Made by a program: the position numbers and the translations under genes. The notes beneath the pieces were generated by a model. The model saw only the letters and a program-made list of their open reading frames with translations, was not told where the DNA came from and searched no databases. From positions 1 through 51,273 of the forward strand of contig DASWJW010000075.1 of NCBI GenBank assembly GCA_036396955.1: a DNA stretch of 51,273 nucleotides, in the 5' to 3' direction. Source of the stretch: Planctomycetota bacterium (GTDB lineage: Bacteria > Planctomycetota > UBA1135). Shown one piece after another: positions 8,657-49,172 of the stretch (its first letter is position 1; every line of letters starts with the position of its first letter).

Positions 8657-8675
8657 CGGAAGGCGGAACCGCCGT

Positions 8676-15778: not shown

Positions 15779-16162
15779 CTACTTGGCGGACAACCCGTCG
15801 AGTACGCCTTGTAGTACCGCGTTGAGTTCGGGGTCCTTGAGGATCCGCATCATCTGCCGCTGCAGCTTGGCCATCGCCCGCGGCAGGTCCACGCCCATCG
15901 TCAGTTCCATCAGTTCGTCCGGAGTGGGCAGCTCGACCTTGGTCATCCGCTCTTGGAGATCGCGGAGCCGCGCGCCGAGTTCTTCGAGCTCGGCCTTGGC
16001 CTACTCGGCCGCCGCCACGTCGTCGACGCCGGCCAAGGTGTCGGCGACCTCTTCGAGCACGGCGAGGGTTTCTTCGGTGACCGACCGATAGGAGTCGCCT
16101 CCGCACGCAAGCGGCGCCAAGGTCGCGAGAAGGGCCAGGGAGAGTGGGAGAATGTGGTGCAT
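15779..16162 (-). pseudogene. small lipoprotein paralogue P2 interrupted by an in-frame TAG (16001-16003)
   Basis: MHHILPLSLALLATLAPLACGG (lipobox) ...VDDVAAAE-TAG-AKAELEELGARLRDLQERM...KLQRQMMRILKDPELNAVLQGVLDGLSAK-TAG. The reading frame is continuous across the TAG. The total length of 128 codons is identical to P1. By hand count roughly 50 of 127 positions are identical to P1, without gaps, including positions after the stop. Confidence 0.55.
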
Positions 16163-16191
16163 GGGGAATCGCGCGCGCAAGAGGATCTTCA

Positions 16192-16659: not shown

Positions 16660-16728
16660 CGGCGCCGCCTCCTTAGAGTGGGACGGCCGACCTCCGGCCC
16701 CCGAACCCTTGCCCCCATTGGGAGAGTC

Positions 16729-18021
16729 ATGCGAGAGCGCGCGATCGATCGACGGCAATTCGTGAAAGCGGCGGGCGCCGGCCTGGCCGCGCCCTTCGTC
16801 CTCCGCAACCCCGCTTCGTTGCGGCGGACCCCGGCCAACGAGACGCTGGGCCTCGGCATCATCGGCATGGGCATCCGCGCGCGGAACGTGATGAACGGCT
16901 TCTTGCTCAACGACGCACGCGTGCGGATCCTCGCGGTGTGCGAGGTCGACGGCACCCGCCGCGAGCACTACCGGGGCGAGATCGACAAGCACTACGGCAA
17001 CGCGGACTGCGCGGCGTACGTCGACTACGGCGACCTCCTGGCGCGCGACGACATCGACGCGGTGGTGATCACCACGCCCGACCACTGGCACGTCACCCAG
17101 GCGATCCACGCCGCGCAGGCCGGCAAGGACGTCTACTGCGAGAAACCGCTCACCCACACCCTGCGCGAGGGCAGGCGGTTGATCGAGGCGGTGGCCAAGC
17201 ACGGCACGGTGTTCCAGACCGGCAGCCAGCAGCGCAGCGAGTACGGACACCGTTTCGTGAAAGCGGTCGAGTTCATCCGCAACGGCGGGATCGGCAAGCT
17301 GCTGACCGTGCACGTTGGCGTCGGAGATCCGACCCGGATCTGCGAACTGCCCGCGGAGGACCTCGAGCCCGGCCTCGACTGGGAACGCTGGCAGGGCCCG
17401 GTGCCGGCGCGCCCCTACCACAGCGACTTGAGCCCGCGCGGCGTGCACGGCCACTACCCCGACTGGCGCGCCTACGGCGAATACTGCGGCGGCTACCTCG
17501 CCGACATGGGCGCGCACCATTTCGACATCGCGCAGTGGGCCTTGGACGCCGACAGCAGCGGCCCGATCGGGGTCTCCCTGCCGCGCGACGGCGACCGCAA
17601 GCGCGGCGCGACGCTCCACTACGCCAACGGCGTCGACGTGGTGCACGGCGGCCCCAACGGCGCCACTTTCATCGGCACGAACGGCATGGTGGCGGTCGAC
17701 CGCGGCCGCTTGTCCGCCGTCCCAGGCCACGACTTCGACGCCCCCGCCGAAGCCGGCGCCGAACCGCTCGCCTTCACACTGCCGCGCAACGTCTCGCACG
17801 TCGACGACTGGATCCAATGCATCCACTCGCGCGCGACGCCGATCTGCAGCGCCGAGATCGGCGCGCGCACGGCGGCGGTGTGCCAGCTGCTCAATCTCGC
17901 GTACCGCCACGGCCGTTCGTTCCAGTGGGACCCCGTCGCCTGGAAGTTCGAAGGCGAGAACCTGCCGGCCGGGCTGATGGACTACCAGCGCCGCGACGCT
18001 TTCCCCCTGCCGCGGGGCTGA
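16729..18021 (+). CDS. Gfo/Idh/MocA family oxidoreductase with twin-arginine (Tat) signal
   Basis: MRERAIDRRQFVKAAGAGLAAPFVL is a Tat motif. It is followed by a Rossmann segment (LGIIGMGIRARN...) and by DAVVITTPDHWH and YCEKPL. GGAGAG lies upstream of ATG 16729. Confidence 0.9.
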   Translation: MRERAIDRRQFVKAAGAGLAAPFVLRNPASLRRTPANETLGLGIIGMGIRARNVMNGFLLNDARVRILAVCEVDGTRREHYRGEIDKHYGNADCAAYVDYGDLLARDDIDAVVITTPDHWHVTQAIHAAQAGKDVYCEKPLTHTLREGRRLIEAVAKHGTVFQTGSQQRSEYGHRFVKAVEFIRNGGIGKLLTVHVGVGDPTRICELPAEDLEPGLDWERWQGPVPARPYHSDLSPRGVHGHYPDWRAYGEYCGGYLADMGAHHFDIAQWALDADSSGPIGVSLPRDGDRKRGATLHYANGVDVVHGGPNGATFIGTNGMVAVDRGRLSAVPGHDFDAPAEAGAEPLAFTLPRNVSHVDDWIQCIHSRATPICSAEIGARTAAVCQLLNLAYRHGRSFQWDPVAWKFEGENLPAGLMDYQRRDAFPLPRG

Positions 18022-21418: not shown

Positions 21419-22864
21419 ATGACGCCCTTCCGAGGCACTTTCCTGCTGGCGAGCCTGCTCGCGGCTTGCGGCGGCGAGGCTTCCATCGAGGACCGGCCGC
21501 CGAACGTACTGCTGATCGTGGCCGACGACCAGGGCTTCGCGGACCTCGGAGCGGCGGGGCTCGCCGCCGACGTCGCCACCCCCGCCCTCGACGCGCTCGC
21601 CGCCCGCGGCGTGCGCTTCACCCAGGCCTACGCGAGCTCCCCGATCTGCAATCCCTCGCGCGCGGGGCTCATGACGGGAGTGCACCAGCAGCGCTTCGGA
21701 TGTTTCTGGTACGGCGGCGAAGGGCTCCGCGACGCGCGCTTCCCCACCATCGCCGAAACCCTGCGCGAGCACGGCTACGTCACCGGCTACGTCGGCAAGT
21801 TCCACTACGGCAGCGAAGACCTGCCCGGCAAGCGCAGCTTTCCGCTCGAGCACGGCTTCGACTCGCTGTACGGCTTCGCGGGCGGCCGCAAGCACTACCT
21901 GGTCCACTCCGCCGCCGCCGAAGACGCTTGGCAGGCGGTCCGCCAAGCGCACGCGCGACGCGGCCAGAGCTTGCAGCAGGGTCCGTTCTGGGTCGACGAC
22001 CGCCAGGAAGACCAGCCAGGATTCAGCACCGAGCTGCTCGGCGCACGCGCCCGGGAGTTCCTGGCGGCGAACGCCGACGAGGCCTTCTTCCTGACGCTCG
22101 CATTCAACGCGGTGCACAACTTCACGCACCAGCTGCCCCAGGAGTACCTCGACGAACACGGCCTGGCGGGCTACCGCGACTGGGATCCGGCCACCGAGGA
22201 GTACTACGACTGGTATCGCGCCGGGCGCAAGCCCAACAACCCCGAAGGCCGCGCGCAATACCTTGGCCAGCTGCACTACCTGGACCGAGAAGTCGGGCGC
22301 GTGCTCGCCGCGCTCGACGAACTCGGCCTCGCCGAACGCACGCTGGTGATCTACGTGGGCGACAACGGTGGCTCGACGCCGATCTACGCCGACAACGGCC
22401 CGCTGCGCGGCGGCAAGTACACGCTCTACGAAGGCGGGATCCGGGTGCCGCTGATCGTGGCGTGGCCGGGCCGCATCCAGGCCGGGACGGTGCGCGACGA
22501 AATGGTCAGCGCGCTCGATCTGTATCCGACCATTTGCACCGCAGCGGGCGCGACGGCCCCGCAGCATCTGGAAGGCTTCGACTTGCGGCCGCTGCTGCGC
22601 GGCGGCGACGAAGCCTGGCCGGCCCGCACGCTGTTCTGGGACACCGGCAAGGAGACCGCCGTGCGGTCGGGAAATTGGAAACTCCGCACCGCTATGGACA
22701 AGAGCCACGCGGACTACGAGATGGTCGAGCTCGAACTCGGCACCTTCCTCTACGACCTGCAGGCCGATCCCGGCGAGAGCACCGACCTGTCGGCAGCGGA
22801 GCCCGAGCGGCTCGCGGAGCTGCTCGCCACTCAGCGAGCCTGGAAGGCCTCGGTGGGCGAATAG
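21419..22864 (+). CDS. sulfatase (formylglycine-dependent), canonical CxPxR, lipoprotein-type signal
   Basis: MTPFRGTFLLASLLAACGG; NVLLIVADDQGFADLG; SSPICNPSRAGLMTG; GKFH; GDNGG; KYTLYEGGIRVPLIV. Confidence 0.9.
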   Translation: MTPFRGTFLLASLLAACGGEASIEDRPPNVLLIVADDQGFADLGAAGLAADVATPALDALAARGVRFTQAYASSPICNPSRAGLMTGVHQQRFGCFWYGGEGLRDARFPTIAETLREHGYVTGYVGKFHYGSEDLPGKRSFPLEHGFDSLYGFAGGRKHYLVHSAAAEDAWQAVRQAHARRGQSLQQGPFWVDDRQEDQPGFSTELLGARAREFLAANADEAFFLTLAFNAVHNFTHQLPQEYLDEHGLAGYRDWDPATEEYYDWYRAGRKPNNPEGRAQYLGQLHYLDREVGRVLAALDELGLAERTLVIYVGDNGGSTPIYADNGPLRGGKYTLYEGGIRVPLIVAWPGRIQAGTVRDEMVSALDLYPTICTAAGATAPQHLEGFDLRPLLRGGDEAWPARTLFWDTGKETAVRSGNWKLRTAMDKSHADYEMVELELGTFLYDLQADPGESTDLSAAEPERLAELLATQRAWKASVGE

Positions 22865-29988: not shown

Positions 29989-31440
29989 TCAACCGCCGTT
30001 CGTGCCGCTGGAATTCTCCGGCGCGTCGACGTCGCGCGGCTCCGCCACGTCTTTTCCGTCATCCAACGCGGCGTCGGCGCCGCCCGGCGCGGCTGCACGC
30101 AGCGCGTCGAGCGCATCGCCAGACGGCGGCTCCTGCCGCGGACGGATGTGCGCGAAATACGGCGCCGCCTGCTTGTCGTAGGCCACGCGGCCGTTGACGA
30201 CCGCCCACTGCACGAAGGTACGGTAGTCGAAGAGGTCGCCGTCGGTGACGATCAGATCGGCGTCCTTGCCGGCTTCGATCGATCCGATCCGGTCCTCCAC
30301 GCCGAGAATGCGCGCGGCGTCCAGCGTGATCGCCTTGAGAGCGGCGGCTTGCGGCAGGCCGCCGCGGATCGCGAAAGCCGCTTCCATCGGCAGCGTGAGC
30401 AGGTCTCGTCCCGCAATGCCGCCTGTGCTGATCGACGAACTCCGCGGCTGCAGCGTAAAGCGGACGCCGGCATCGTGCAGGATCCGCGCGTTCTCGATCG
30501 ACCAGCCGTTGGGCCGGTTGAAGCGATCGTCGGCCCAGTTCTTCTGCCGCGGCGAGACCACCACCATCACCCCGGCACGGCCGAGCTGCGGGGCGACCGT
30601 CCAGGCTTCGATTCCGCTGCCGACCACCGCCCGCATCGGAAAGCGCTCGAGCAGGTCGACGACCGCCAGCAGGTCGCGCGCATTGCTGCCCTGCAGCTGG
30701 GCGGTCCGGCGGCCTTCGAGCAGTTCGACGAGGTCCTTGTTGACGCCCTTGTCGGAGGGATCCTTGGCATCCTTGTCGCCATCGGCGCGCGCGCGCTCGG
30801 CGGCGTGCCGCTGGCGCAGGAATTCGCGGGCCTTCTCCAGGTCCTCGACCAATTTCCGGCGCGAAGTCGGCGAGGTCGAGCTGTACGAGAGCTCGACGAA
30901 GGGGTTCTCGCGCAAGATGTGGCCTTCGAGCGTGCCGCGGGTCAGCTTGCCGACCACGCCGTTGTTGTGGACGGTGGTCAAGCCTCCCGACAGCGCCAGG
31001 TCGACGGTCAGCGAGAACGGATCGAAGCTGTCGGCCGGCTTCGGCGGCCGGCCGAGCAAGCCGCTGGCGTCGGTGGCGACCAGTCCCGGATAGACGTGCA
31101 TGCCCGTGGCGTCGATCACGCGCGCACCCGCGGGCACGCTCACTTGCGCACCGACGGCTTCGATGCGGCCCGCGCGCACCAGAACGGTGCCCTGGTGGAT
31201 CACGCCGTCGGTGACGGTGTGGATGCGGCCGCCGACGATCGCCAGCAAGTTTTCCACGACTTCCGGCTCGGCGGCTGCTTCCGCGACTTCCTCGATCTCC
31301 TCGGCGGCCTCGACGGCCGGCTCGGGTTGCGGATCCGGCCCGGGCGGCGGCTCTTGGGCCCACCCCGCCACGGCCGCGAACAGCAGGAACACGGCGCCGG
31401 CGAGCAGCCGCCAGAAGGTTTCTCGCGAAACGGGACTCAT
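29989..31440 (-). CDS. exported amidohydrolase-fold paralogue, array member 8 of 8 (HxH strand degenerate)
   Basis: The signal/TM segment is FWRLLAGAVFLLFAAVAGWA. The N-terminal beta-sandwich reads IVGGRIHTV...VRAGRIEAVG...VIDATGMHVYPGLVATDASG, which has no HxH. The C-terminal motif is GSIEAGKDADLIVTDGDLFD. Its ATG overlaps the member-7 stop (ATGA). Confidence 0.78.
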   Translation of the reverse strand: MSPVSRETFWRLLAGAVFLLFAAVAGWAQEPPPGPDPQPEPAVEAAEEIEEVAEAAAEPEVVENLLAIVGGRIHTVTDGVIHQGTVLVRAGRIEAVGAQVSVPAGARVIDATGMHVYPGLVATDASGLLGRPPKPADSFDPFSLTVDLALSGGLTTVHNNGVVGKLTRGTLEGHILRENPFVELSYSSTSPTSRRKLVEDLEKAREFLRQRHAAERARADGDKDAKDPSDKGVNKDLVELLEGRRTAQLQGSNARDLLAVVDLLERFPMRAVVGSGIEAWTVAPQLGRAGVMVVVSPRQKNWADDRFNRPNGWSIENARILHDAGVRFTLQPRSSSISTGGIAGRDLLTLPMEAAFAIRGGLPQAAALKAITLDAARILGVEDRIGSIEAGKDADLIVTDGDLFDYRTFVQWAVVNGRVAYDKQAAPYFAHIRPRQEPPSGDALDALRAAAPGGADAALDDGKDVAEPRDVDAPENSSGTNGG

Positions 31441-32861
31441 CGGCGCTCCTCTTTCTCTTCCTTGGCGCGGTCGTAGAGCACCTTGCCTTCGCGCAGCAGG
31501 AACTGGACCTCGGCAGTGGCATCCAGCGGATCGCCGTCGAGGATCACGAAAGTCGCCGGGCCGCCGGCGACGAGCGCCGCGACGTGCTCTTCCTGGCCGA
31601 TTGCGGCCGCGGCTTCGAGCGTGATCGCGCGCAAGGCGACTCCCCGGTCGAGGCCGCCGCGGACCAATTCGCTCACGCCGGCGCGCCAATCATGGAGATT
31701 CGTCTCGGCCGAACTCCGGCCGAACCCGCCCGGTCCGCGGGTCGCCGGCGGCAGCAGGACCAGCGGTACGCCGCGCGCCGCGAGTTCCGCCGGCAAGTTG
31801 AGGCGCGTGCGGGTGAACGGCAAAAAGGACAAGCGTGCGGGCAAGTAGACGCGCTCGCCGCGCTTCTCCAGCGCGTCGAGAACTTCGTGGAGGTTGGTGC
31901 TCGAGGAGTGCATCGCGACCAGTTCCCAGGGCAGTTCGCGCTCGCCGAGGACGTCGAGCAGGTGCAGCCAGGCGGCCGCGTCGTCCACCCAGATCTGGGC
32001 GACGCGCTGCTTGCGCACCCACTCCACCACCGGCACCAGGTCGGGCTCGATCGTGGGCGGCTCGAAGGTTTCGGGCGGGGCCTTCTCCTCGGCGTCCTTG
32101 CCCTTGCCACTGCTCTTGTCGTCGCCGCCTTCGTCCTTGCCGGGCTTGGGGGTCGCTTCGCCGCCTTCCGCCGGCTTCTTCTCGTCCTTGGCGGCCTTGT
32201 CGGCGGCGGCCTTCTTCTGCTTCTCGTCCCAGTCCTTGCGGGCCTTCTCCCAGTCGGTGCGCGCCTTCGCTTCCTTTTCGATCGCCTTGTCGGCGTCCTC
32301 GAGCGCCTTGCGCAGCAACTCCTTGGAGCGGTTGTTCGAATCGAGCTCCACCTTGAGGTGCAGATCGCGTACCCGAGCCCGCGGTTGCGGCGCCGCGGCG
32401 TCCGCGTCGAGCACCGAAGTCCGGCCGGGCAGGCCGCTGCCCGGCGGATCGACTCCGACGAGCAGCACGCCGTGCTCGCGCAAGGGTTGCAAGGCGTCGT
32501 CGTCGAGCCAGAGCGAGTCGGCGGCGAGGAAACGCGCGTTGCGGCCATTGCCGCGGCTGTCGCTTTGCAACCAATTGGCGTGCGTGAGCACGTAGGGCGG
32601 CATGAGGGTGGAGCCCCCGCCGCGCAGGTCGTGGACGACCGCGCCGGTCGGAACGACCACGGCCTTGCCCAAGGCCTCGATCACGCCCTGGCGCACCACG
32701 AGCGTGGCGCTCTCCATGGCCTCGCCGTCGAGGGTCTCGATGCGGTCGACGCGGTAGACCGTCGCACGCCCGACCGGAGCCGCGTCCGCCTTTGCGGCCG
32801 GCCCGGGATCCTGCGCCGGCGCCAGGACCGCCGGCAAGAGAGCCAGGAACGCGGGGTGCAT
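31437..32861 (-). CDS. exported amidohydrolase-fold paralogue, array member 7 of 8, with K/E/D-rich insert
   Basis: The signal peptide is MHPAFLALLPAVLAPAQ. The strand at the HxH position is LMPPYVLTHANW. A charged insert lies at nt 32052-32330 (KEAKARTDWEKARKDWDEKQKKAAADKAAKDEKK...). The C-terminal motif is AALVAGGPATFVILDGDPLD. Overlap with member 6 is 1 nt (TGATG). Confidence 0.75.
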   Translation of the reverse strand: MHPAFLALLPAVLAPAQDPGPAAKADAAPVGRATVYRVDRIETLDGEAMESATLVVRQGVIEALGKAVVVPTGAVVHDLRGGGSTLMPPYVLTHANWLQSDSRGNGRNARFLAADSLWLDDDALQPLREHGVLLVGVDPPGSGLPGRTSVLDADAAAPQPRARVRDLHLKVELDSNNRSKELLRKALEDADKAIEKEAKARTDWEKARKDWDEKQKKAAADKAAKDEKKPAEGGEATPKPGKDEGGDDKSSGKGKDAEEKAPPETFEPPTIEPDLVPVVEWVRKQRVAQIWVDDAAAWLHLLDVLGERELPWELVAMHSSSTNLHEVLDALEKRGERVYLPARLSFLPFTRTRLNLPAELAARGVPLVLLPPATRGPGGFGRSSAETNLHDWRAGVSELVRGGLDRGVALRAITLEAAAAIGQEEHVAALVAGGPATFVILDGDPLDATAEVQFLLREGKVLYDRAKEEKEERR

Positions 32862-34066
32862 CAGAACCGCCTCCCGTCGCGTTCGGCGTCGTAGACGAGT
32901 TCGCCGCGGATCCACGTGCGCGTCACGAACGAGCGCGGGTCGAGCGGAAATCCGGTCCAGGCCACCATGTCGGCTTCGAGGCCCGGTTCGAGCCGGCCGG
33001 AGACGTCGTCGCACTTGAGCGCGAAAGCGGCGTACGAGGTGATTCCCTTGAGCGCGCCTTCGGGGTCGTCGTGGCCGAGCCGCACGCCCATCGCCGCCTG
33101 GTAGCTCAACTCCTCCTGCGGGACCCCGCCCGAGTCGGTGTTGTAGCCGAGCACCAGGCCGTCGGGCACGGCTTCGGCCCAACCGGCGCCGCAGCCCTGG
33201 ATCCGCGAATTGGTGCGGTCGAAGAAGAACTGCCGCGGGCCGTTCATGACCGGCACCTTGAGCTCGGCGGCGAGCTTGGCGAGCTTGTAGCCGTCGAAAG
33301 TGCCGTGGTCGATGAACGGATCGAGTCCCAGCTCCTGTTTCTGCATGGTCAGCGTCATCAACACGACCTGATAGATCTGCGTGTGCACGCTGACTGGAAT
33401 GTCCTTGGCGAGGAGCGGCTCGAAATCGCGCCAGAAGTCGCTCCAGCCGATCTCGCCGGCGGCGTAGCCCTCGGCCCAGCCGAGCCCGCGCTGCAGCGTG
33501 TCGCGGGTGTTCCAGTTCATCAGCGAACGGCCGACGAAGGGGTACCAGCGCTCGGGGTTGCCCGACTGCGCGACCTTCAACGAACCAGGATTCATGACGA
33601 GCATGTCGTCCATGTCGTGGCCGGCCATCTTGATGAGCGCCCCGAATCCGCCGATGTTCGTGCCCGACCCCGGAATGAACAGCGCGGTCGTGACTCCGCC
33701 GGCCAGCGCGTCCTTGTTGGCGGGGTTGTCTGGGTCCACGCCGATCGCAACCCGCAGGTCCGGGTTGGTCGGGTGGACCATGTCGTTGATGTCGTTTCCG
33801 GAGTCGGCCGCGTGGTTGTGCGGCTCGTGCAGGCCGGGCGCGAGCCACTGCTCGCCCAGGTCGATCACGGGAGTTCCGGGCGGCAGGTCGATCTGGTCCG
33901 CGCGGCCGACCGCGGCGATGCGCTTGCCGCGCACCAGCACGATGGCGTTGTTCAGCACGCCAGCGTCGCCGGCCGTGAAGACCTTCGCGGCCTTGAGCGC
34001 GTAGACGTCTTCGCCGGCCGGTCCTTGGAACAGCATCGGCAGCATCAGGGCGAGGATCGGGATCAT
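32861..34066 (-). CDS. exported amidohydrolase, array member 6 of 8, the only member retaining HxH
   Basis: The N-terminus is MIPILALMLPMLFQGP. The strand LAPGLHEPHNHAADSG retains HxH. Later motifs are GGVTTALFIPGSGTNIGG, VSVHTQ, IDHGT, GYNTDSGG and the C-terminal GRLEPGLEADMVAWTGFPLDP. Its ATG overlaps the member-5 stop (ATGA). Confidence 0.82.
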   Translation of the reverse strand: MIPILALMLPMLFQGPAGEDVYALKAAKVFTAGDAGVLNNAIVLVRGKRIAAVGRADQIDLPPGTPVIDLGEQWLAPGLHEPHNHAADSGNDINDMVHPTNPDLRVAIGVDPDNPANKDALAGGVTTALFIPGSGTNIGGFGALIKMAGHDMDDMLVMNPGSLKVAQSGNPERWYPFVGRSLMNWNTRDTLQRGLGWAEGYAAGEIGWSDFWRDFEPLLAKDIPVSVHTQIYQVVLMTLTMQKQELGLDPFIDHGTFDGYKLAKLAAELKVPVMNGPRQFFFDRTNSRIQGCGAGWAEAVPDGLVLGYNTDSGGVPQEELSYQAAMGVRLGHDDPEGALKGITSYAAFALKCDDVSGRLEPGLEADMVAWTGFPLDPRSFVTRTWIRGELVYDAERDGRRF

Positions 34067-36984
34067 TCTTTCGGCACCTCCCGGCCGTTCACGAACACGC
34101 GTTCGACGCGGCTGCGCAGGTCGAAGGGCGGTCCGGAATGGACCACCACGTCGCCGGCGCGGCCGGGGGCGAGGAGACCGAGCTCCTCGTCGAGACCGAG
34201 CAGCGCCGCAGCGCCGCTCGTGAGGGCCTGGAGCGCCTGGTCCGCGCCCAGTCCGTAACGGGTGGCGAGCGCCAGTGCTTCGGGCAGGAAGCGGGCGCCG
34301 CCTTGCGCGCCGGAGCGGAACGCCACCGGAATGCCCGCCGCAAGCAATTCCGCGGCGGGCACGTGGTCGCGGCCGTCCACGCGCTCGATCACCGTCGAGC
34401 TGAGCACCACGCCGCGCGACTTCTCGCGGAGCAGGTCGGCGACCTGGAGCGCGTCCTCGCCGCCGAGGATCGCGACCGGCAGTTCGTGGGCCGCGAAAGC
34501 CTCGACCGCGACGCGGATTTCGTCCGCGCGTTCGGCCTCGACGATTGCGACCGCGCGGCCTTCGAACAGCGCACGTTGGCCTTCGAGATTCCAGTCGGTC
34601 TTGGGCGGCTGCGGGCCGTCGTCCTTGGCGCGGCGCTTGCGGGTGACCGCGACCTCGCCCCCGCCGGCGTCGACTTCGGTGCGGTGGGCCTCGAACTCGG
34701 TGCTGCCCAGGCCCGCCAGTTCCACGCGGACGTTCATCAAGTCGACGCCGACGAGTTCGCCGACGATCACGACCTTGCCGATCTCGGTGTCGACCTCGAC
34801 CCGCGCGATCTTGGTGGCGGCGTCCCAGGTGCCCTCGATCTCGAAGTTCTCGCCGGGAGCCTCCGGCGACGACAGCACGATCAGCAAGCGCGCGCCTTCG
34901 TGGCGCATCCGCGCCTGGACGCTCACCGGCTGGGGCAGGCGTTCGTCTTCGATCGTGGCTTCCCACATGCCGTTGATGGGATCGACCAACTTGACCTTGG
35001 CTTCTTCGACGATCTCCGCCTCGGCGACCTCGGCCACGGGCGCTTCCGGTTCCGTCGCGGTGCCCTGCGCCAAGCGCACGCGCAGCGCGGCTTCGGCATC
35101 GGCGCCGGCCTTGCCGCTCTCTTCGGCGTGCTTGACCTCCCACTCGGCGCGCTCCTTGCGGTACTTCGCCCAGGAATCGGCGTAGGACTTGCCGCGCTTC
35201 AGCGCCTCGGCGAGCTCGTTCGCGCGCGCGAGGTGGTCGCCGCCGCGCACCGAGAACCAGACCAGCTCGTGGTCCTGCACCCAAGCGCCGTCGCCGCCTT
35301 CGGCGGCGGTCTTGACCGCCGGCCCCCCCGCGCCGTTGGGCGGCTTGGCGGCCGGTTCCAGCGCCATGGTCGTGACGCCCGCGCGCGCGACCTGCGCCCA
35401 ATCGGAGCGGTACCGCGATCCGGAGGCCAGCAGTCCGAGCAGGGCCTTGGGATCGACCCGGCCGCCGCCGATGCCGAGGCGGCCGCCGGCGTCGATGAAC
35501 CCGGGAGTCAGGTGAGCTGCGGCGCCGGCGTCGACCAGCCGCGCGCCGCGCGGGTGCGGCACGCTGCGGCCCACGGCCTCGACGCGGCCGTTGCGCAACA
35601 GGACTTCCCAGCCGCCAGTCAGCGGGGCGCCCGATCCCGTCCACAGAGTGCCGGCGCGCACGATCACCGCATCGCTTGCGGGCGCGGCGTCGGGCCGCGG
35701 CTGTTCGCGCCAGACAAGCTCGCCTTCCACGTAGACGCGCTGGACCGAGCTCGCCGGATCGAGCGGAGCGCCGGACATCACCACGAAGTCGGCATCGCGG
35801 CCAGCCAGCAGGCTGCCGGCACGGTCGGCCACGCCGAGCAGCTGGGCGGGCACCCTCGTGACCGCCGCCAGCGCAGCGCCCTGGTCCAGACCGTCGCCGG
35901 CGGCCGCCGCGGCGGCTTCGAGCAGCATGGTCCACCGGCCGAAAGGGCCGACGGCCAGCGCCACCGGCAGGCCCTGCGCATGCAGCGCGGCGAGAGCCCC
36001 GGGTTCCGGGCGGACCCAGTCCTCGGGCAAGTCGGGAGTGCCGAGGAACAAGGGCACCTGGAAGATCACGCCGGCCCCCGCCTTGGCGAGCGCGGCGGCG
36101 AAGGGCGCGGCCTCGGCGGCGCCGTCGAGCAGCAGGCGCCGACCCCATTCAGCCGCGAGATCGATCGCCGCGCGCACTTCGCCGGCGTTCGCCGCGACCA
36201 CGCGCAAGGGCTCGCGGCCCTTGAGGAACTCCGCGAAGGCGGCTCGGTGGGCGTCGTAGCTGCCGTCCAGGTAACGGGTCAGGTACCAGCTCTCGCGCAA
36301 GGCCAACAGCGCGCCGGCGCGGGAACTCGGCGCTTGCGCCTTGAGCGGCTCGTACGGCTGCTGCGAGTTGGGCGGCAGCGGCATGCGGAAGAAGCGCGGG
36401 GCCCGCCCCCACACTCCGGGGTCCAGAGAGACCCGCAAGTCGCCTCGATCGACGAGCACGCGGTTGCCGCCCGCCGTCTTGACGACCGCGCCACGGCCGC
36501 CGACCAGGCGATCGCGCGACGGCGAGAGATAGAAGGTGGTGATGCCCTTGGAAAGGACGGAGTCGAGGTCGCGCCAGGCATCGAAATCATCGATCGCGCG
36601 CCGGTCCGCACCCAGCGAGGCCTCGCCTTGCGCGTTGCCCGCGCCGGCCACGGTGCTGTCGGCCGCGACCAGGCCGGGCATGATCTCGGCGGCGCCGAGT
36701 TCGATCACCGGCAGCAAGGGCGGCAAGTCCGCGGCCGAACGGGCGACGCCCTGCACCTTGCCGTCGCCGACCAGCAGCCACGCGTCGACGAGCGGCGCCG
36801 CTGCGCCCGGCTCCTGCCAGATGCGGGCGGCGTGATAGGCGCGTTCGACCTTCACTTCGGCCTGGCGCAGCGCGTCGGCGGCCGCCGTGCGGTCCGGGGG
36901 GTCGCCGCCGCGCGAACCGATCAAGGCCGGCGCGCCGATGCCGACGGCGAGCGCCGCGGCTCCGATCCAGAGAATGCGGCTCAC
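34063..36984 (-). CDS. exported double-module amidohydrolase-fold paralogue, array member 5 of 8
   Basis: The GTG start (VSRILWIGAAALAVGIGAPALIG, a TM/signal segment) overlaps the member-4 stop (GTGA). There are two complete modules: IMPGLVAADSTV...GSLLAGRDADFVVMSGAPLDP and LTPGFIDAGGRL...GLLAPGRAGDVVVHSGPPFD. An insert of about 210 aa lies at nt 34585-35220. Confidence 0.78.
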   Translation of the reverse strand: MSRILWIGAAALAVGIGAPALIGSRGGDPPDRTAAADALRQAEVKVERAYHAARIWQEPGAAAPLVDAWLLVGDGKVQGVARSAADLPPLLPVIELGAAEIMPGLVAADSTVAGAGNAQGEASLGADRRAIDDFDAWRDLDSVLSKGITTFYLSPSRDRLVGGRGAVVKTAGGNRVLVDRGDLRVSLDPGVWGRAPRFFRMPLPPNSQQPYEPLKAQAPSSRAGALLALRESWYLTRYLDGSYDAHRAAFAEFLKGREPLRVVAANAGEVRAAIDLAAEWGRRLLLDGAAEAAPFAAALAKAGAGVIFQVPLFLGTPDLPEDWVRPEPGALAALHAQGLPVALAVGPFGRWTMLLEAAAAAAGDGLDQGAALAAVTRVPAQLLGVADRAGSLLAGRDADFVVMSGAPLDPASSVQRVYVEGELVWREQPRPDAAPASDAVIVRAGTLWTGSGAPLTGGWEVLLRNGRVEAVGRSVPHPRGARLVDAGAAAHLTPGFIDAGGRLGIGGGRVDPKALLGLLASGSRYRSDWAQVARAGVTTMALEPAAKPPNGAGGPAVKTAAEGGDGAWVQDHELVWFSVRGGDHLARANELAEALKRGKSYADSWAKYRKERAEWEVKHAEESGKAGADAEAALRVRLAQGTATEPEAPVAEVAEAEIVEEAKVKLVDPINGMWEATIEDERLPQPVSVQARMRHEGARLLIVLSSPEAPGENFEIEGTWDAATKIARVEVDTEIGKVVIVGELVGVDLMNVRVELAGLGSTEFEAHRTEVDAGGGEVAVTRKRRAKDDGPQPPKTDWNLEGQRALFEGRAVAIVEAERADEIRVAVEAFAAHELPVAILGGEDALQVADLLREKSRGVVLSSTVIERVDGRDHVPAAELLAAGIPVAFRSGAQGGARFLPEALALATRYGLGADQALQALTSGAAALLGLDEELGLLAPGRAGDVVVHSGPPFDLRSRVERVFVNGREVPKE

Positions 36985-38381
36985 TGCAGCGTCCCCTCCA
37001 GCAGGCGCTGCAAGCGCTCGTCGGTGGAACGCTCGTAGATGCGTTCGCCGCGCAGCCAGACTTCGAGGACCTTGTGGTTGGGATCGAGCGGGTCGCCGCT
37101 CAGCACCGCGAAGGTGCCGTCGGCGCCGGCGGCGATTCCGCCGAGCGAGGCGGCCAGCTTCCAGGCGGCGGCCGGGTTGCTCGTCACGGCCGCGAGCGCC
37201 GTGGCGCGCGGCACGCCTTCGCGTACGCAGACCGCGCCGAGGTAGGCCAGGCGGTCGGCGTCCATCAAGCCGCCTTGCGGCGTGAGACTGAACGCGATGC
37301 CTGCATCGGCGAGCACCTTGGGGACGAAGGTCTTGATCTCCTTCCAGGTGACCGGGTCGCGCTCGACGTGCCAGAGATCGCCGGCCAGGACCACCGGCCG
37401 GCCGGCGGCGGCCAGCACCGCGCTCGCCTTCCAGGCGTCGCCGTCGATCAGGAACACGCCGCGCGCGAGCAGGCCGTGCGTCGACAACCAGTCGTTCGCG
37501 TGGACCACGTCGGTCGCCGTCGGCGCCCAGACCCAGAGGTCGCGGTCGCCGTTGAAGATCCGCACCAGGCTGCGCTGCGGTTCGGGCAGGTCGGCCTCGG
37601 CGATCTCGCCCTTGCCGGGAAAGTCGGCGCCGAAGCGCACGAAGCCCGGATTCCGGCTCGCGCCGTCGAGCGGCGGCGGATCGTTGGCGGGGTCCTCGCC
37701 CGCGCGTTCGGCGTCGGCGAGCGCGGCGGCGCCGTCGACCAGTTCCTGCCCTTTGCGGCGCAGGAAGTCGAGCAGCCCGGCCTCGGCTTCGCGCAGCTCG
37801 GCCATCTGCGCGCTGCGGCTGTTCCCGCTGCGCGGCGCGAAGGACATCACGTGCCCCAACGGAGCGCGCAAGGTCATGTCGCCCACGGTCATGCCGTGCG
37901 GCGCCACGACCCGGCCCAGGCCGGCGATCACGGTGCTGGTGCCCTGCATCACGCCGATCGCGACCACGCCGTTGCGCCGCTCTTCTTCGAAGTAGAGCTG
38001 CGAGGGGTCGAGCGAGTCGCGGACGTCGAGGAAGGGGCCCACCGGCACGTTCTCGTTGGCGCGGTCGAGACCGCTGGTGGTGTACGCCACCTTGAAGCCG
38101 GAGAAGACCACGGCGTCGGGATGCTCGTGGAGCACCACGTCGAAGGGAATCTCGAGATCCGCCCCGCCGACGGCGGTGATCTTGCCGCCGCGGACGAGGA
38201 CGGTGCCGTTCTCGATCTCCCGGCCGTCGGCGAGGATCACGCGGCCGGCGCGCACGGCGACGTCGCCGGACTGCAAGGCCGCGGCGGAGGGCGCGAGCGC
38301 GGCGAGCAGCGCCAGCACGAGCGGCACCGGGCCGGAGCAAAGGTGGCGAAGCGGACGAGCGGGAAGGTGCGGAACGGACAT
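36981..38381 (-). CDS. exported amidohydrolase-fold paralogue, array member 4 of 8 (HxH strand degenerate)
   Basis: The signal is PVPLVLALLAALAPSAAA. The N-terminal region reads VRAGRVILADGREIENGTVLVRGGKITAVG. The HxH position is VFSGFKVAYTTS. The C-terminal motif is GGIAAGADGTFAVLSGDPLDP. Overlap with member 3 is 1 nt (TGATG). Confidence 0.72.
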   Translation of the reverse strand: MSVPHLPARPLRHLCSGPVPLVLALLAALAPSAAALQSGDVAVRAGRVILADGREIENGTVLVRGGKITAVGGADLEIPFDVVLHEHPDAVVFSGFKVAYTTSGLDRANENVPVGPFLDVRDSLDPSQLYFEEERRNGVVAIGVMQGTSTVIAGLGRVVAPHGMTVGDMTLRAPLGHVMSFAPRSGNSRSAQMAELREAEAGLLDFLRRKGQELVDGAAALADAERAGEDPANDPPPLDGASRNPGFVRFGADFPGKGEIAEADLPEPQRSLVRIFNGDRDLWVWAPTATDVVHANDWLSTHGLLARGVFLIDGDAWKASAVLAAAGRPVVLAGDLWHVERDPVTWKEIKTFVPKVLADAGIAFSLTPQGGLMDADRLAYLGAVCVREGVPRATALAAVTSNPAAAWKLAASLGGIAAGADGTFAVLSGDPLDPNHKVLEVWLRGERIYERSTDERLQRLLEGTLQ

Positions 38382-39859
38382 CAGAAGGTGACCTGGGGCC
38401 GGGCGTCGAAAGCGATCACCCCGTCCACCAGGACGAGGATCGGGCGGGAATCGGCCGCCAACGGCGGGCCGGACCAGAGGACGAGGTCGGCGTCCTTGCC
38501 GACCTCGATCGAGCCGAGGCGTTCCTGCACGCCGCAAAGGCGCGCCGCCTCGAGGGTGACCGCGGGCAGCGCCAGCGCGGGCTCCAGCCCCCACTCCACG
38601 GCGCGGCGGGCCTGGTGGATCAAACTGGCTTCGGCGCCGAAACGGCCATGCGCTTCGGCGGCGCCGAGCACGGTCGGAACCTCCGTCGCGGCGAGCAGCG
38701 CGGGCAGCGCTGGCGTCGCGAGGCCCGCGGTGGCGCGCCGGCCGCGGAACAGCCCCTGCGCGTCGGCGCTTCCGGGAACCACGATCGACAGCAAGTCGAG
38801 CGCGAAGTCGCTGACGTGCACGTGGCCGGTGGTGTCCGGCGCTCGGTAGCGTTCGGGGACTTGCGCGTCTTCGTCTTCGCAGCAGAGTTGCGGCGGCCGC
38901 ACGCCGGTGCGCCACTCGGCGAGGTTCAAGGGCCGCACCACGGCCCGGCGTGGATCGTCGAACAGCGGCCCGGTGACCACTTGCGCGCGCATCTTCTGCA
39001 GCACCGGGATGCAGCGGTAGGCCTCGGTGCCTTCCTCGATCACGAACGGCGGCAGCTGCAGTTCTTCCTGCAGCCGCTTGAGCGCCTGAAGGTCCTGGCT
39101 CTTCCGCGCCTGGATCCGCAACGGCAGCTCGCCGTCGAGCGCGGCCACCAGCGCGTCGAGGCCGGGGTCGGAGACTCCGGCGCCGGCAGCGCGCGCGGCG
39201 CGGTAGCGCGCGGCGCGGTGGAATTCGCTGCGGATCATCCGCTCCACGCCCATCCGCGTCGTCGGCCGCCGGTAGTTCATGTCGTCGGGCGAGCCGCCCC
39301 ACGGCGGCCGGTTGCCCGAACTCGGTTCGCTGCCCATCGTCACCTTGAGCGCGGCGTCTTCGACGATGACGCGCGCCGCACTGCCGGGATCGGCGAAGAG
39401 GTCGGCGGACTCGCCGCCGTGGGTTTTCACCACCGCGCCGATGCCGCCGAAGACGTTCAGCGAATCGGGGCTCAGGTAGGCCCCCGTCACGCCCTGCACG
39501 ACCGCGGTCCGGAATTCCGCCGAATCGAGTTCGGCGGTGCGTGCGACCCGCATGGAGGGCGTGGACTCGCGGGTCTGGTCGAGGGTCGCGGCGCCTACTC
39601 CCATGTAGGAGTAGGCGTCGAACAGGCCGGGACTCAATTCCGCCCCCGCGACGTGCACGTGAGCGCCGGCGGCGGAACCCCCGGCCACCACGCTGCGGAT
39701 CAGGCCGTCGGCGACGACCACCACGGCGTTCTCGAGCACGCGGCCGTCGCCGACGTGCAGGCGGTCGACGGCGATCACCAGGTCTTCGCCCGCGGCGCCG
39801 CCCGAAGGCACGGCCTGCCCGAGGGCGAGCGGAAGCAGCAAGGAGAGGGCGCAGATCAT
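38381..39859 (-). CDS. exported amidohydrolase-fold paralogue, array member 3 of 8 (HxH strand degenerate)
   Basis: The signal is MICALSLLLPLALGQA. The HxH position is LSPGLFDAYSYM. The C-terminal motif is GSIEVGKDADLVLWSGPPL. Its ATG overlaps the member-2 stop (ATGA). Confidence 0.78.
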   Translation of the reverse strand: MICALSLLLPLALGQAVPSGGAAGEDLVIAVDRLHVGDGRVLENAVVVVADGLIRSVVAGGSAAGAHVHVAGAELSPGLFDAYSYMGVGAATLDQTRESTPSMRVARTAELDSAEFRTAVVQGVTGAYLSPDSLNVFGGIGAVVKTHGGESADLFADPGSAARVIVEDAALKVTMGSEPSSGNRPPWGGSPDDMNYRRPTTRMGVERMIRSEFHRAARYRAARAAGAGVSDPGLDALVAALDGELPLRIQARKSQDLQALKRLQEELQLPPFVIEEGTEAYRCIPVLQKMRAQVVTGPLFDDPRRAVVRPLNLAEWRTGVRPPQLCCEDEDAQVPERYRAPDTTGHVHVSDFALDLLSIVVPGSADAQGLFRGRRATAGLATPALPALLAATEVPTVLGAAEAHGRFGAEASLIHQARRAVEWGLEPALALPAVTLEAARLCGVQERLGSIEVGKDADLVLWSGPPLAADSRPILVLVDGVIAFDARPQVTF

Positions 39860-40959
39860 TCGTCTTCGTCCACGGGAGCGGTCCAGACGGTGCGGCCGGC
39901 GAGCATCACCGCTTGGACGCGCGCGGCGCCGTCGAGGGGATGTCCGCTCCACAGCACCAGGTCGGCGACCGCGCCGGGAGCGATGCGGCCGCGGTCGTCC
40001 AGGCCCGCGATCGCGGCGGCATTGCCGGTGACGGCGGCCATGGCGGCGGCCGGATCGCCCGTGGCGCGCGAGTAGGCCATGGCGGTGGTGCGCAGGCCGT
40101 CGAGGACTTCGCCGCCGCGCCCGCTCCGCGTGCCGAAAGCGACGCGCACGCCGGCGCCGTGCAGGCGCTTCCAAGTCTCGAGCAGGCGCGCCGACCAGTC
40201 GCCGTCGTGGATCGCGGGGAGCACGACGAGCGCTCCGGCCAGTTCGCGGCCGTAGCCGCCGACGTCGCCCCAGGCGAGGTAGACGGCGTCGAAGCCCTGC
40301 TCGCGCGCCCGCTGGGTGGCCGCACGGGCGCCTTCCGCGGAATCGAGGTAGACCGCGACCTTGCGGCCGCGCCAGACGTCCGGGGCACGGGCGATGGCGG
40401 CGTCGAGGTCCTCGAGCGCTCCGGCCACCGCGGTCGGCCCGATCACCGGATCGGCGAAGCCGCTCGCGACCAGCGAGACGACGGCGCGCGCGCGCGGCGC
40501 GAGCATCCGGTCGACCGCCGCGCCGGTGCGCACTACGCTCGAATCTCCGGCCAGCGCCCGCGCCGGATCGGGGACCACGTGCACGGCCGTGATGCCGCGC
40601 TCCAAGGCCGCCTGCCAGTAGCGGTGGCGCAGGTCGAGCGCGTCGGCGGCGCGCAGACCGGCGTTGTTGCGGAACGCGCGTTCGGCGATCTCGCCCTGGA
40701 CCGCCACTCCGGCGGCCGCATCGATCATGCCGGGCGCGAGCACGCCGTGCAGGCGCACGACCTTGACTCCCGCCGGCTGGGGAACGTCTGCGCCCACCGC
40801 GAAGATGCGGTCGCCGCGCAACAGGATCTTGCCGTCGGGGATGACCGCTCCGTCCGGACCGATCACGCCGTCGGCGTGCAGGATCATGGCTTCTTGCGCG
40901 CGCGCGGAAGCCGCGCAGGCCAGCAGAGCGACACCGAAGGGCAGCAGGCTGCGGATCAT
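39856..40959 (-). CDS. exported amidohydrolase-fold paralogue, array member 2 of 8 (HxH strand degenerate)
   Basis: The signal is MIRSLLPFGVALLACAASARAQ. The HxH position is LAPGMIDAAAGV. The C-terminal motif is GRIAPGAVADLVLWSGHPLDG. Its ATG overlaps the member-1 stop (ATGA). Confidence 0.78.
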   Translation of the reverse strand: MIRSLLPFGVALLACAASARAQEAMILHADGVIGPDGAVIPDGKILLRGDRIFAVGADVPQPAGVKVVRLHGVLAPGMIDAAAGVAVQGEIAERAFRNNAGLRAADALDLRHRYWQAALERGITAVHVVPDPARALAGDSSVVRTGAAVDRMLAPRARAVVSLVASGFADPVIGPTAVAGALEDLDAAIARAPDVWRGRKVAVYLDSAEGARAATQRAREQGFDAVYLAWGDVGGYGRELAGALVVLPAIHDGDWSARLLETWKRLHGAGVRVAFGTRSGRGGEVLDGLRTTAMAYSRATGDPAAAMAAVTGNAAAIAGLDDRGRIAPGAVADLVLWSGHPLDGAARVQAVMLAGRTVWTAPVDEDE

Positions 40960-42323
40960 CGCCGTCCTCCCGGCAGCGCCTCGAAGGGCGCGGAAGCGTC
41001 GAACGGGCTGGCGCCCTGGAACAGCACCAATTCGGCGCGGGCGCCGCGCGCGATCCGGCCGTGGCTGCCCTCGAGCCCGAGCAGGCGCGCGGGGATCTCG
41101 GTGAGGCTGGCCCAGACCGCCGCGGGATCGGCGCCAGCGGCGATCAATTCGCCGGCGCGGAGCAGGAGCAGGCCCTGGGCGCCGTCCGAGCCCCCGCTGG
41201 CCAGCGCGACCTCGACGCCGGCGTCGGTCAGGCGCCGGTAGCGGACCGCCAGGGACCGTTCTGCGGCAGCCCGCGAACCGTGCTGCGGCGCGACCGCCAG
41301 CACCACCGCGATTTCGGCGGCGGCGAGTTCGCGCGCCAGCAGGTCGGCTTCTTCCGCGCCGACGGCGATCACGCGGTCCAGTTCGAAACGCTCCTTGATC
41401 GCAATGAGTTCGCGCAGCTCGTGTGCTTGCCCGAGGTGCACGCGCAGCGGCAGTTCGCCGTCGAGCACGCGCAGCAGCAGCTCGCGTTCGGCGTTGCGCG
41501 AAGGCTCCTTGGGACGCTCGGGCCGCTTGGGAGGACCGGATTCCGTTTTGCCGTTCCCGTCCTTCTTGTCGCCTTCGTCCTGCCCGGGCGCGCCGCCGCC
41601 GTCCTTCTTCTCCTTGTCGCCCTTCGCCTTCTTGGCGACGTATTCGTCGAGCTTCTTGGCGTATTCCTCGAGGTCCTTCGCGTGCTTTTCGAGCTTCTCT
41701 TCCCAGTCTTCCCGCGCTTCGCGATAGGTCTCGGCCTGCACCAGGGCCTCGGTCAAGGCGCCGGCGTCGGTGAGCGCGGCCACGCCTTCGCCGCGGCCGC
41801 TGCCGGTCGCCATGTCCACTCCTTCGAGTCCCGCGGGAGTGGGCAGGTCGTTGGCCGAGAAGACCACCGTCGTGCCGAGACCGCGCTGCAGTCCGCTGCC
41901 GCGCGCGGGCAAGTACGCCGCCGCAACGCCGGCGGCGCGCGCCGCCGCGACGCGCGCGGCGAGTTGCGGATCGGCGCCGGCGAGATCGACCGGAAGGCCG
42001 TCGCGCACTTGCTCGTCCCCCGGCCCGCCGTTTCCCGCGAGCAGGTCGCCAGGCAGCAGGCCGGACCACGCGTCGACGAAGCCGGCGGCGAGCGTGCCGG
42101 CGAGTTCGACCGTGCGGCCGCCGCGCGGCGCGCGCGCGGACACGGCCTGGATCTCGCCGTCGCGCACCGTCACGTACGCCGGTGCGATGCGGGTTTCCGC
42201 ATCGAGCCAGGCCGCGTCGGCCTTGTAGACCACCACGCCGCCGGCCTGCCCGGATACGACGGGGGTGAGGAGAAGCAGGGCCAGGGCCCCGGCGAGGGCC
42301 CCACGAAGGGAGAGGGGGTTCAA
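40956..42323 (-). CDS. exported amidohydrolase-fold paralogue, array member 1 of 8, with K/E/D-rich insert
   Basis: A TTG start gives MNPLSLRGALAGALALLLLTPVVSGQ. The HxH position is LAAGFVDAWSGL. A charged insert lies at nt 41496-41738 (REDWEEKLEKHAKDLEEYAKKLDEYVAKKAKGDKEKKDGGG...). The C-terminal motif is GRIARGARAELVLFQGASPFD. Confidence 0.72.
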   Translation of the reverse strand: MNPLSLRGALAGALALLLLTPVVSGQAGGVVVYKADAAWLDAETRIAPAYVTVRDGEIQAVSARAPRGGRTVELAGTLAAGFVDAWSGLLPGDLLAGNGGPGDEQVRDGLPVDLAGADPQLAARVAAARAAGVAAAYLPARGSGLQRGLGTTVVFSANDLPTPAGLEGVDMATGSGRGEGVAALTDAGALTEALVQAETYREAREDWEEKLEKHAKDLEEYAKKLDEYVAKKAKGDKEKKDGGGAPGQDEGDKKDGNGKTESGPPKRPERPKEPSRNAERELLLRVLDGELPLRVHLGQAHELRELIAIKERFELDRVIAVGAEEADLLARELAAAEIAVVLAVAPQHGSRAAAERSLAVRYRRLTDAGVEVALASGGSDGAQGLLLLRAGELIAAGADPAAVWASLTEIPARLLGLEGSHGRIARGARAELVLFQGASPFDASAPFEALPGGRR

Positions 42324-47168: not shown

Positions 47169-47270
47169 CGTAATCTCGGCGGTCCGAATTCGCGCGTTGC
47201 GCCACAGACTCCACAACGCGCGCGCGCCTTCGTGCGTACGCAAGCGCCGAGTCCGGACTCTGGACGAGAG

Positions 47271-48272
<1,002 letters not shown>

Positions 48273-48287
48273 TCGCGCGACCGGGAG

Positions 48288-49172
48288 ATGGCGCGGCTCT
48301 CCGTTCCCGAGATCCTCCGCAAGGTGCGGAGAGTGCGTCTGGCGGCCAACCGCCAGGTCGACGACCTGTTGTCGGGCGGCTACCAGTCGGTGTTCCGCGG
48401 CCAGGGCATGGAATTCGACGAGGTGCGCGAATACCAGCCGGGCGACGACATCCGCTCGATCGACTGGAACGTGACCGCGCGCGCCGGGCGGCCTTTCGTC
48501 AAGCGCTACTCCGAAGAGCGCGAGCTCACCGTGCTGTTCGTGGTGGACGTCTCCGCCTCCGGAGTCTTCGGCTCGCAGGACGGCGCCAAGCTCGACCTCC
48601 TGATCGAACTCGCGGCGGTGCTGATGTTCGCCGCGGCGCGCAACCAGGACAAGGTCGGCCTGCTGTTCTTCGCCGGCGAAGTGCTGCAGTTCGTGCCGCC
48701 GCGCAAGGGCCGCGGCCACGTGATGCGCTGCTTGCGCGAGCTGGTGGCGGTCGAGCCCCGCGCCGGCGGCACCGACATCGCGGCTGCCGCCGAGTACTTG
48801 CGCGGGGTGCAGAAACGGCGCGCGGTGGTGTTCCTGCTCTCCGATTTCCTCGCTCCGCTCGACGAGCGCGTGCTCGCGGCGGTCAAGCACCGCCACGACT
48901 TGATCGCGGTCAGCGTGAGCGATCCGCACGAGCGCGAACTGCCGGCCGCGTGGCTGCGGCTGCTCGACCCCGAGACCGGCGAGCTGGTCGAAGCCGACGG
49001 CCGCTCTCCGGCGGTGCGGCGCGCCTTCGCCGACAAGGCCGCGCGCGGCGAGGCCCGCCTGGCCAAGACTTTGCGGCGCTCCGGCGTCGACCGCCTGCCC
49101 TTGTGCTGCGGCGAGGCCTATCTGCAGACCCTGCTCCGTTTCTTCGAGATGCGCCGACGGCGCGTGCACTAG
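48288..49172 (+). CDS. DUF58 domain protein (MoxR-associated)
   Basis: GGYQSVFRGQGMEFDEVREYQPGDDIRSIDWNVTAR...FVVDVSAS... is the typical DUF58 signature. The gene sits directly after moxR. Confidence 0.85.
   Translation: MARLSVPEILRKVRRVRLAANRQVDDLLSGGYQSVFRGQGMEFDEVREYQPGDDIRSIDWNVTARAGRPFVKRYSEERELTVLFVVDVSASGVFGSQDGAKLDLLIELAAVLMFAAARNQDKVGLLFFAGEVLQFVPPRKGRGHVMRCLRELVAVEPRAGGTDIAAAAEYLRGVQKRRAVVFLLSDFLAPLDERVLAAVKHRHDLIAVSVSDPHERELPAAWLRLLDPETGELVEADGRSPAVRRAFADKAARGEARLAKTLRRSGVDRLPLCCGEAYLQTLLRFFEMRRRRVH

Follow-up and report, generated by a model that had tools for sequence, protein, structure and literature searches.

An operon of nine amidohydrolase-fold modules with a single intact metal site in a Planctomycetota bacterium

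The stretch of DNA analysed here (51,273 nucleotides of contig DASWJW010000075.1 from a Planctomycetota bacterium; in the following, the window) carries on its minus strand, at 29989–42323, eight co-directional genes that encode nine modules of the amidohydrolase fold. The genes are called M1 to M8, and M5 is a fusion of two modules, M5a and M5b. According to an original prediction made from the letters of the sequence, only one of the nine modules keeps the HxH strand that carries metal ligands in amidohydrolases, and the rest look like pseudoenzymes. The locus raises the question why so many modules of one enzyme fold are kept side by side if a single one has retained its metal site. It appears fairly probable to us that the operon encodes nine exported modules with M6 as the sole hydrolytic centre and eight non-catalytic partners, most likely combined in one hetero-oligomeric particle.

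Metal ligands in M6 and in the other eight modules

Because the window has about 70% G+C, raw lists of open reading frames are unreliable, and the genes were set by a third-position GC frame plot together with start-codon analysis. At each of the seven junctions the stop codon overlaps the next start codon, either by 4 nt (ATGA or GTGA) or by 1 nt (TGATG). On the basis of the GC frames and these overlaps the eight genes form one operon. Public gene calls made independently for an ENA contig of identical sequence (L001) give M6 to M8 the same lengths. An N-terminal hydrophobic, signal-peptide-like segment with a 10-residue Kyte–Doolittle maximum of 2.3–3.0 occurs in 8/8 proteins; the two downstream cytoplasmic neighbours reach 0.8–1.0 and have no such segment. 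Judged by these segments, all eight operon proteins are likely to be exported.

All nine modules share one amidohydrolase fold and belong to the clade of PDB entry 3OOQ. Every module family is homologous to the M6 family in hhalign comparisons (99.8–100%), and Pfam (Amidohydro_1/3) matches all eight proteins as amidohydrolases, weakly and mostly via the last 100 residues. The fold of the superfamily, a (β/α)8 barrel with a composite β-sandwich, was found in AlphaFold2 (AF2) models of M6 and M5 and, for the other modules, by profile–profile comparison and Pfam. 3OOQ was the best PDB match of M6, M3 and M8 with E values of 4e-40, 4e-24 and 8e-22, compared to 1e-7 or weaker for the next entries, and for the M6 and M5 models template modelling (TM) scores of about 0.8 to 3OOQ were obtained, compared to at most 0.57 for other entries. 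No module comes near any curated cut-off of NCBIfam. The top weak match for most modules is a Xaa-Pro dipeptidase model, and M6, the best module for NF051886 (Xaa-Pro dipeptidase, Caulobacter type), is with 55.9 bits against a cut-off of 500 not a member of that family. The isoaspartyl dipeptidase model TIGR01975 (cut-off 331 bits) is matched by no operon module.

M6 (32861–34066, minus strand, 401 aa), exactly the region that the original prediction had singled out, is the sole module with a full set of ligands for a binuclear-metal site. Its motifs are located on the minus strand at 33809–33844 (LAPGLHEPHNHA), 33377–33394 (VSVHTQ), 33299–33313 (IDHGT) and 33125–33142 (NTDSGG). The ligands are H83 (codon 33820–33818), H85 (33814–33812), K164 (33577–33575), H228 (33385–33383), H254 (33307–33305) and D311 (33136–33134). 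They are invariant in 61 database orthologues, and in an E-INS-i alignment the same six (H, H, K, H, H, D) are invariant in 30/30 M6 sequences and in 21/21 sequences of M6b, a sister module of related operons described below. In the AF2 model of M6, with a predicted local distance difference test (pLDDT) of 89.4 and a predicted TM score (pTM) of 0.90, H83 and H85 are found at the barrel strand 79–84, K164 at 156–165, H228 at 225–229, H254 at 250–254 and D311 just after 306–308. All six are thus placed at or just past the C-terminal ends of strands 1, 4, 5, 6 and 8, and the downstream ligands, on which the prediction depended, are all present. The HxH codons are covered by an exact contig from public run X1 (33800–33950, 0 differences).

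The ligand motifs of 3OOQ and M6 align pairwise (DAHSH/EPHNH, LKMAFGENP/LKVAQSGNP, RMHAH/SVHTQ, IEHGT/IDHGT and CD/TD, 3OOQ being given first). A Foldseek search with the M6 model returned 3OOQ first with TM 0.79–0.81, followed by the Cc2672/prolidase group at about 0.57. Since M6 alone has a binuclear-metal site, composed of HxH, a lysine placed for carboxylation, two His and an Asp, it would be the only hydrolytic centre of the operon. By analogy with Cc2672, Sgx9260-type prolidases and ochratoxin amidohydrolases, its substrate is most likely a peptide-like amide bond at a C-terminal residue.

For the other modules, the corresponding positions were taken from the same E-INS-i alignment, which comprises 203 module sequences and is consistent with the context of the motifs. 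Global pairwise hhalign alignment was replaced for this table, as it misplaced several strand-5, -6 and -8 positions at large inserts. Given in the order of the M6 ligands, M1 (40956–42323, 455 aa, with an uncertain TTG start) has W, G, D, H, V, G and keeps 1/6; M2 (39856–40959, 367 aa) has A, G, V, Y, L, R (0/6); M3 (38381–39859, 492 aa) has Y, Y, K, Q, E, A (1/6, the strand-4 Lys); and M4 (36981–38381, 466 aa) has Y, T, V, W, L, Q (0/6). In M5 (34063–36984, 973 aa) the residues are D, T, R, V, D, G in M5a (approximately 35698–36984) and G, R, W, E, L, G in M5b (34063–35697). M7 (31437–32861, 474 aa) shows H, N, K, W, H, A (3/6) and M8 (29989–31440, 483 aa), with which the operon ends, D, S, E, Q, G, R (0/6). 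All of these genes are on the minus strand. With 0–3 of six ligands and no HxH in any of them, none of the eight modules has a binuclear-metal site. His at both HxH positions occurs in 0/152 sequences of the eight non-M6 families, and because of this the loss of the ligands is not a matter of chance but a lineage-wide pattern. The original prediction of a single HxH among nine modules is thereby confirmed, and every motif that it quoted was found on the minus strand at the expected place, with the eight HxH-less strands in neighbouring genes. Its count of one catalytic among seven non-catalytic members holds for proteins; the modules without HxH number eight, as M5 contains two.

The motifs which replace HxH on the first strand are family-specific and conserved. 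M1 reads VDAW with an invariant W; its Pfam matches are weak and C-terminal only, and its hhalign value to the M6 family is 99.8%. M2 reads IDAAAG and M8 VATDASG. In M3 the motif is FDAYSYMGV, and the match to 3OOQ shows H>Y, H>Y, H>Q and H>E at ligand positions. M3 also has a family-specific insert with an invariant Cys-Cys-Glu (CCE; approximately 38855–38881, aa ~327–335, QLCCEDEDA), after which the orthologues have a His/Asp/Glu-rich stretch; the motif may belong to a loop that binds metal, or it may form a vicinal disulfide. Most orthologues of M4 still have the first His (19/21) and the Lys (20/21), whereas the M4 of the window has lost both (KVAYTTS compared to the consensus EAH[ST]S). 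M7, for which no Pfam match is recorded in public gene calls, has the motif PPYVLTHANW; it keeps H94, K170 and H318 but not the second His, the strand-5 His or the strand-8 Asp.

These residues lead to the question whether some HxH-less modules, especially M7, M3 and the M4 type, are still enzymes with a non-canonical, mononuclear or metal-free site, so that the operon would have several activities. The three ligands of M7 and the His and Lys of M4 orthologues would be compatible with this, as would M3, which in addition to K172 has E275, an AEAH(D/G) motif on strand 8 and the conserved CCE and His/acid-rich loop. A third Pseudomonas PyrC, an amidohydrolase paralogue without zinc ligands, was moreover reported to be active (PMC2770081), and for this reason ligand loss is no proof of lost activity. 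In each pseudo-family, however, at most two or three of the six positions are conserved, and the kept residues are not conserved across the divergent operon group introduced below. In that group, for example, the first-strand His of M7 is Tyr; the strand-6 His of M7 is found in only 10/21 sequences. Former ligand positions are mostly at or below the family median of conservation, while M6 and M6b are invariant there; the few conserved exceptions are Trp in M1, which is invariant, Lys in M7, Glu in M3 and the His and Lys of the M4 type. A search for a substitute ligand set based on conservation at these positions in the HxH-less families revealed none that is fixed; an alternative set of metal ligands in most members would have spoken against the original prediction. 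We regard several activities in this operon as quite improbable, and M6 as sole hydrolytic centre is retained in the following.

Constraint on the modules, their age and the missing M6b

To collect relatives, species-representative genomes were scanned with M5 and metagenome contigs with M6 and M6b. The gene order M1-M2-M3-M4-M5a/b-M6-M6b-M7-M8 is fixed in more than 25 metagenomic loci. Two operon groups can be distinguished by their identity in M6, a close one with 55–61% and a divergent one with 42–47%, which has one to three copies of M6. Nine modules in the window compare to 10 in the main group and 10–12 in the divergent group. The source labels are mostly those of Planctomycetota metagenome-assembled genomes, with single Myxococcota and Phycisphaerales labels, and the database names of the relatives are only "amidohydrolase family protein", "imidazolonepropionase-like amidohydrolase" or "hypothetical protein".

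The ratio of nonsynonymous to synonymous substitution rates (dN/dS) was determined for close orthologue pairs with dS of 0.03–0.43; distant pairs were dropped because dS was saturated or undefined. Values of 0.02–0.05 were obtained for M6, 0.03–0.08 for M6b and 0.04–0.15 for the HxH-less modules, for example 0.065–0.10 for M1 and 0.05–0.07 for M2. It follows that the modules without HxH are functional and strongly constrained, only slightly less so than M6. The identity between window and relative is 60% for M6 and 38–51% for the other modules. Lost catalytic residues and weak Pfam scores are also what decaying duplicates without function would exhibit, but such decay is hardly credible and was rejected on the selection and conservation data: dN/dS remains at 0.04–0.15 at unsaturated dS, more than 25 loci that span 25–60% divergence have intact reading frames, the families are ancient and monophyletic, and the AF2 model of M5 is confident. 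With an enzyme fold, missing catalytic residues and purifying selection, the HxH-less modules correspond to pseudoenzymes as the original prediction had suggested, although residues are partly kept (three in M7, one each in M1 and M3); their inactivity is a probable consequence, read from the sequences. Selection would thus maintain them as non-catalytic partners.

In the tree, the ten module families form one monophyletic group each, with members from both operon groups, and the paralogy is therefore old. M6 has M6b as its sister, and no other pair comes near the two in similarity, their hhalign score being 667 compared to 114–367 for all other pairs. An origin of the ten modules by a 5+5 block duplication was considered and discarded, as the all-versus-all hhalign comparison does not pair M1 with M5b, M2 with M6, M3 with M6b, M4 with M7 and M5a with M8.

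M6b, which has all six ligands, is next after M6, directly or after extra M6 copies, in 26/26 related loci that cover this point. Among them are L087, which shares 61% identity in M6 as well as wider synteny with the window and has M6b at 11243–12436, and L004 with M6b at 15567–16742. In the window, the M6/M7 junction (32859–32863, minus strand) reads TGATG, i.e., the final base of the M6 stop codon is also the first base of M7, and no M6b-like sequence was found across the whole window. Exact contigs of 202 bp and 234 bp from two other public runs, X1 and X2 (soil, sediment), span this junction. Misassembly as the cause of the missing M6b is ruled out by these independent contigs, and the loss is therefore real. 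Judged by ligand sets, two of ten modules (M6 and M6b) are catalytic as the family norm and one of nine in this organism; the single catalytic subunit of the original prediction thus applies to the window but not to the family.

Joined modules, assembly and genomic surroundings

The M5a–M5b fusion is kept in 47 orthologues of 926–983 aa. For the AF2 model of the two-module M5 (pLDDT 85.9), Foldseek again gave 3OOQ as the best match, with a target-normalised TM score of 0.82. M5b contains two inserts between strands 4 and 5, a 56-residue helix (aa 584–639) and a confidently modelled 8-strand β domain (aa 672–771); for the β domain no Pfam match was found, and PDB sequence matches are at chance level only (best E 0.09). 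At the same site, M1, M7 and M8 contain K/E-rich helices with disordered linkers.

Many multi-module fusion proteins occur among the relatives of M8. They were collected by an exhaustive HMMER search, and in the 149 closest representatives of 50%-identity clusters the modules were classed by an N-terminal profile, which calls the nine modules of the window correctly. The order pseudo-HxH-pseudo was found in 40 of the 42 relatives of at least 1100 aa. The 20 relatives of 700–1100 aa comprise 13 HxH-pseudo, 2 pseudo-HxH and 5 pseudo-pseudo proteins. The fusion proteins come from Acidobacteriota and Planctomycetota metagenome bins and have generic names only. Adjacent separate genes for an HxH and an HxH-less protein were observed in at least 10 further loci. 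Because such fusions and gene pairs recur, live and dead modules, as classed from their sequences, are repeatedly joined in the 3OOQ-type clade.

Two observations on these relatives may be recorded separately. Single-chain three-module pseudo-HxH-pseudo proteins of 1129–1572 aa (within P0209–P0308) are common in those bins and annotated only as amidohydrolase family protein; one single-chain protein of this order is P0239 (1129 aa), labelled Candidatus Solibacter. Two-gene relatives, in which an HxH protein is followed by its HxH-less partner (L040, 5248–12605; L051; L085), have genes for a GldA/F/G-like ABC-2 transporter and a DUF4340 protein upstream of them, and L051 shows a gene of the mandelate racemase/enolase superfamily in between.

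3OOQ, a structural genomics entry from Thermotoga maritima MSB8 with unknown function, is the nearest solved relative of every module tested and has the HxH, LK, H, EHG and D motifs in common with M6. It differs from the operon in that it is a single protein forming a homo-oligomer, the alignment leaves no room for a signal peptide, and no HxH-less partner is known. The entry contains 10 chains and is used as an example of a dihedral homomer in a benchmark set whose complexes have at least 10 chains (bioRxiv 10.64898/2026.08.06.736029); D5 symmetry is therefore implied.

The translational coupling of the overlapping genes, the fixed gene order, the M5 fusion, the fusions of HxH with HxH-less modules and the homo-oligomeric relative point indirectly, but in the same direction, to physical assembly of the operon products, and the fusions among the M8 relatives are the strongest of these indications. 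Most likely, M6 and the HxH-less modules would form a single hetero-oligomeric particle that goes back to the homo-oligomer of single-gene relatives, and in it the HxH-less modules would supply scaffold, substrate capture or gating. Alternatively, no stable complex is formed and each HxH-less protein acts independently as a binding or chaperone-like protein in the periplasm, e.g., for different peptide substrates, being merely co-expressed with the hydrolase. Module numbers that differ between lineages and the tolerated loss of M6b would fit independent proteins, and the first-strand motif conserved in each family could mean different ligand specificities. In view of the recurring covalent fusions of HxH with HxH-less modules, the conserved M5 fusion, the overlap at 7/7 junctions, the co-occurrence of all families in fixed order and the large homo-oligomer formed by the nearest solved relative, we consider this alternative rather unlikely.

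Several points weigh against the hetero-oligomeric particle with M6 as its only active centre. The pTM of the M5 model is 0.48, so that the relative placement of M5a and M5b is undefined. The number of modules varies from 9 to 12, and a strict decamer with one paralogue per position is thus not required. Residual metal binding is possible in M7 with its three ligands, in M3 with its Lys and acidic residues and in M4 orthologues with one His and Lys, and the active PyrC paralogue mentioned above belongs here as well. Neither did the search for a substrate clue among the neighbour genes of the operon reveal one, nor does any of the public RNA runs searched contain the gene. A more specific version, a single periplasmic particle on the plan of a dihedral decamer, in which nearly every position is taken by a different paralogue and one (here) or two (usually) are catalytic, is offered only tentatively, and we would sooner doubt than endorse it. 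With the count varying between 9 and 12, the derivation of the ten-module operon from a decameric ancestor is suggestive only.

The genes in the neighbourhood of the operon encode acetyl-CoA synthetase, Bcp, a TrpD-like glycosyltransferase, MoxR/DUF58 and topoisomerase. A tenth amidohydrolase of the window, at 14458–15744 on the minus strand, is a canonical isoaspartyl (beta-aspartyl) dipeptidase (TIGR01975, 366.9 bits, cut-off 331) with the HxH motif IDCHAH and is unrelated to the nine-module operon. It adjoins a cyanophycin synthetase (10851–13643, minus strand; TIGR02068, 1134 bits). Elsewhere in the window, at 2038–5445 (plus strand), 47232–49172 (plus strand), 7292–8728 (minus strand) and 21419–22864 (plus strand), there are genes for a WD40-repeat protein of 1135 aa, for a MoxR AAA ATPase with a DUF58/VWA protein after it, and for two sulfatases. 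A search of the window for tRNA genes gave none.

Known systems and significance

Literature searches on 3OOQ, amidohydrolase pseudoenzymes, heteromeric amidohydrolases, tandem or inactive amidohydrolase domains and Planctomycetes clusters revealed no description of this system. Apart from 3OOQ, the next-best sequence and structure matches of M6 are peptidases of the COG1228 type, namely the Xaa-Arg/Lys carboxypeptidase Cc2672 (3MTW), the prolidase eah89906 (3FEQ/3N2C), the arginine carboxypeptidase 3BE7 and ochratoxin amidohydrolases (8IHQ, 4C60). They share the superfamily, the type of site and the homo-oligomeric state, but are distant (E ~1e-7, TM ~0.57, 56 bits compared to a cut-off of 500), and all their subunits are catalytic.

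Assemblies that mix paralogous subunits are known elsewhere. In the beta ring of the eukaryotic 20S proteasome, a homo-oligomeric hydrolase was replaced by distinct paralogous subunits, of which a minority keeps the active site. The comparison is an analogy only, as the fold is unrelated and assembly is proven there, whereas it is inferred for the operon. If the decamer plan holds, the operon would be a bacterial counterpart of this subunit specialisation, and the two- and three-module fusions as well as the HxH/HxH-less pairs of Acidobacteriota and Planctomycetota would represent simpler stages of the same principle. The animal dihydropyrimidinase-related proteins CRMP/DPYSL are amidohydrolase-fold paralogues without metal ligands that hetero-oligomerise with one another. 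They are among the weak PDB matches of M8, with an N-terminal match only, and differ as eukaryotic cytosolic signalling proteins without a catalytic partner in the assembly. In Pseudomonas, the inactive dihydroorotase PyrC' is needed to assemble the dodecameric aspartate transcarbamoylase (ATCase; Schurr et al. 1995, cited in PMC2770081). PyrC' is a bacterial amidohydrolase-fold protein without metal ligands that is kept as structural subunit of a hetero-oligomeric enzyme. It differs in that the partner is the unrelated ATCase and not a catalytic paralogue, one type of pseudo-subunit is present compared to eight, and the protein is cytoplasmic.

Amidohydrolase-fold pseudo-subunits as such were thus already known from PyrC' and the CRMPs. 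New are the scale and regularity, with eight distinct, ancient and conserved dead paralogues around one or two live ones, and the simpler fused or paired forms in other phyla. Partners of the pseudoenzyme type are familiar from eukaryotic signalling, but in bacteria they are rare and have received little study; the one bacterial amidohydrolase example that we can cite is PyrC' in ATCase. Here, a clade named only "amidohydrolase family protein" systematically pairs active and dead modules, as neighbouring genes, as two- and three-module fusions and, in the extreme, within one operon whose eight to ten genes provide one or two active sites. For annotation this means that 8/9 modules of this operon and hundreds of relatives are probably not hydrolases despite their database names. 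If the products do assemble, the operon would provide a clear natural case of a homo-oligomeric enzyme converted to a hetero-oligomer by duplication and loss of active sites.

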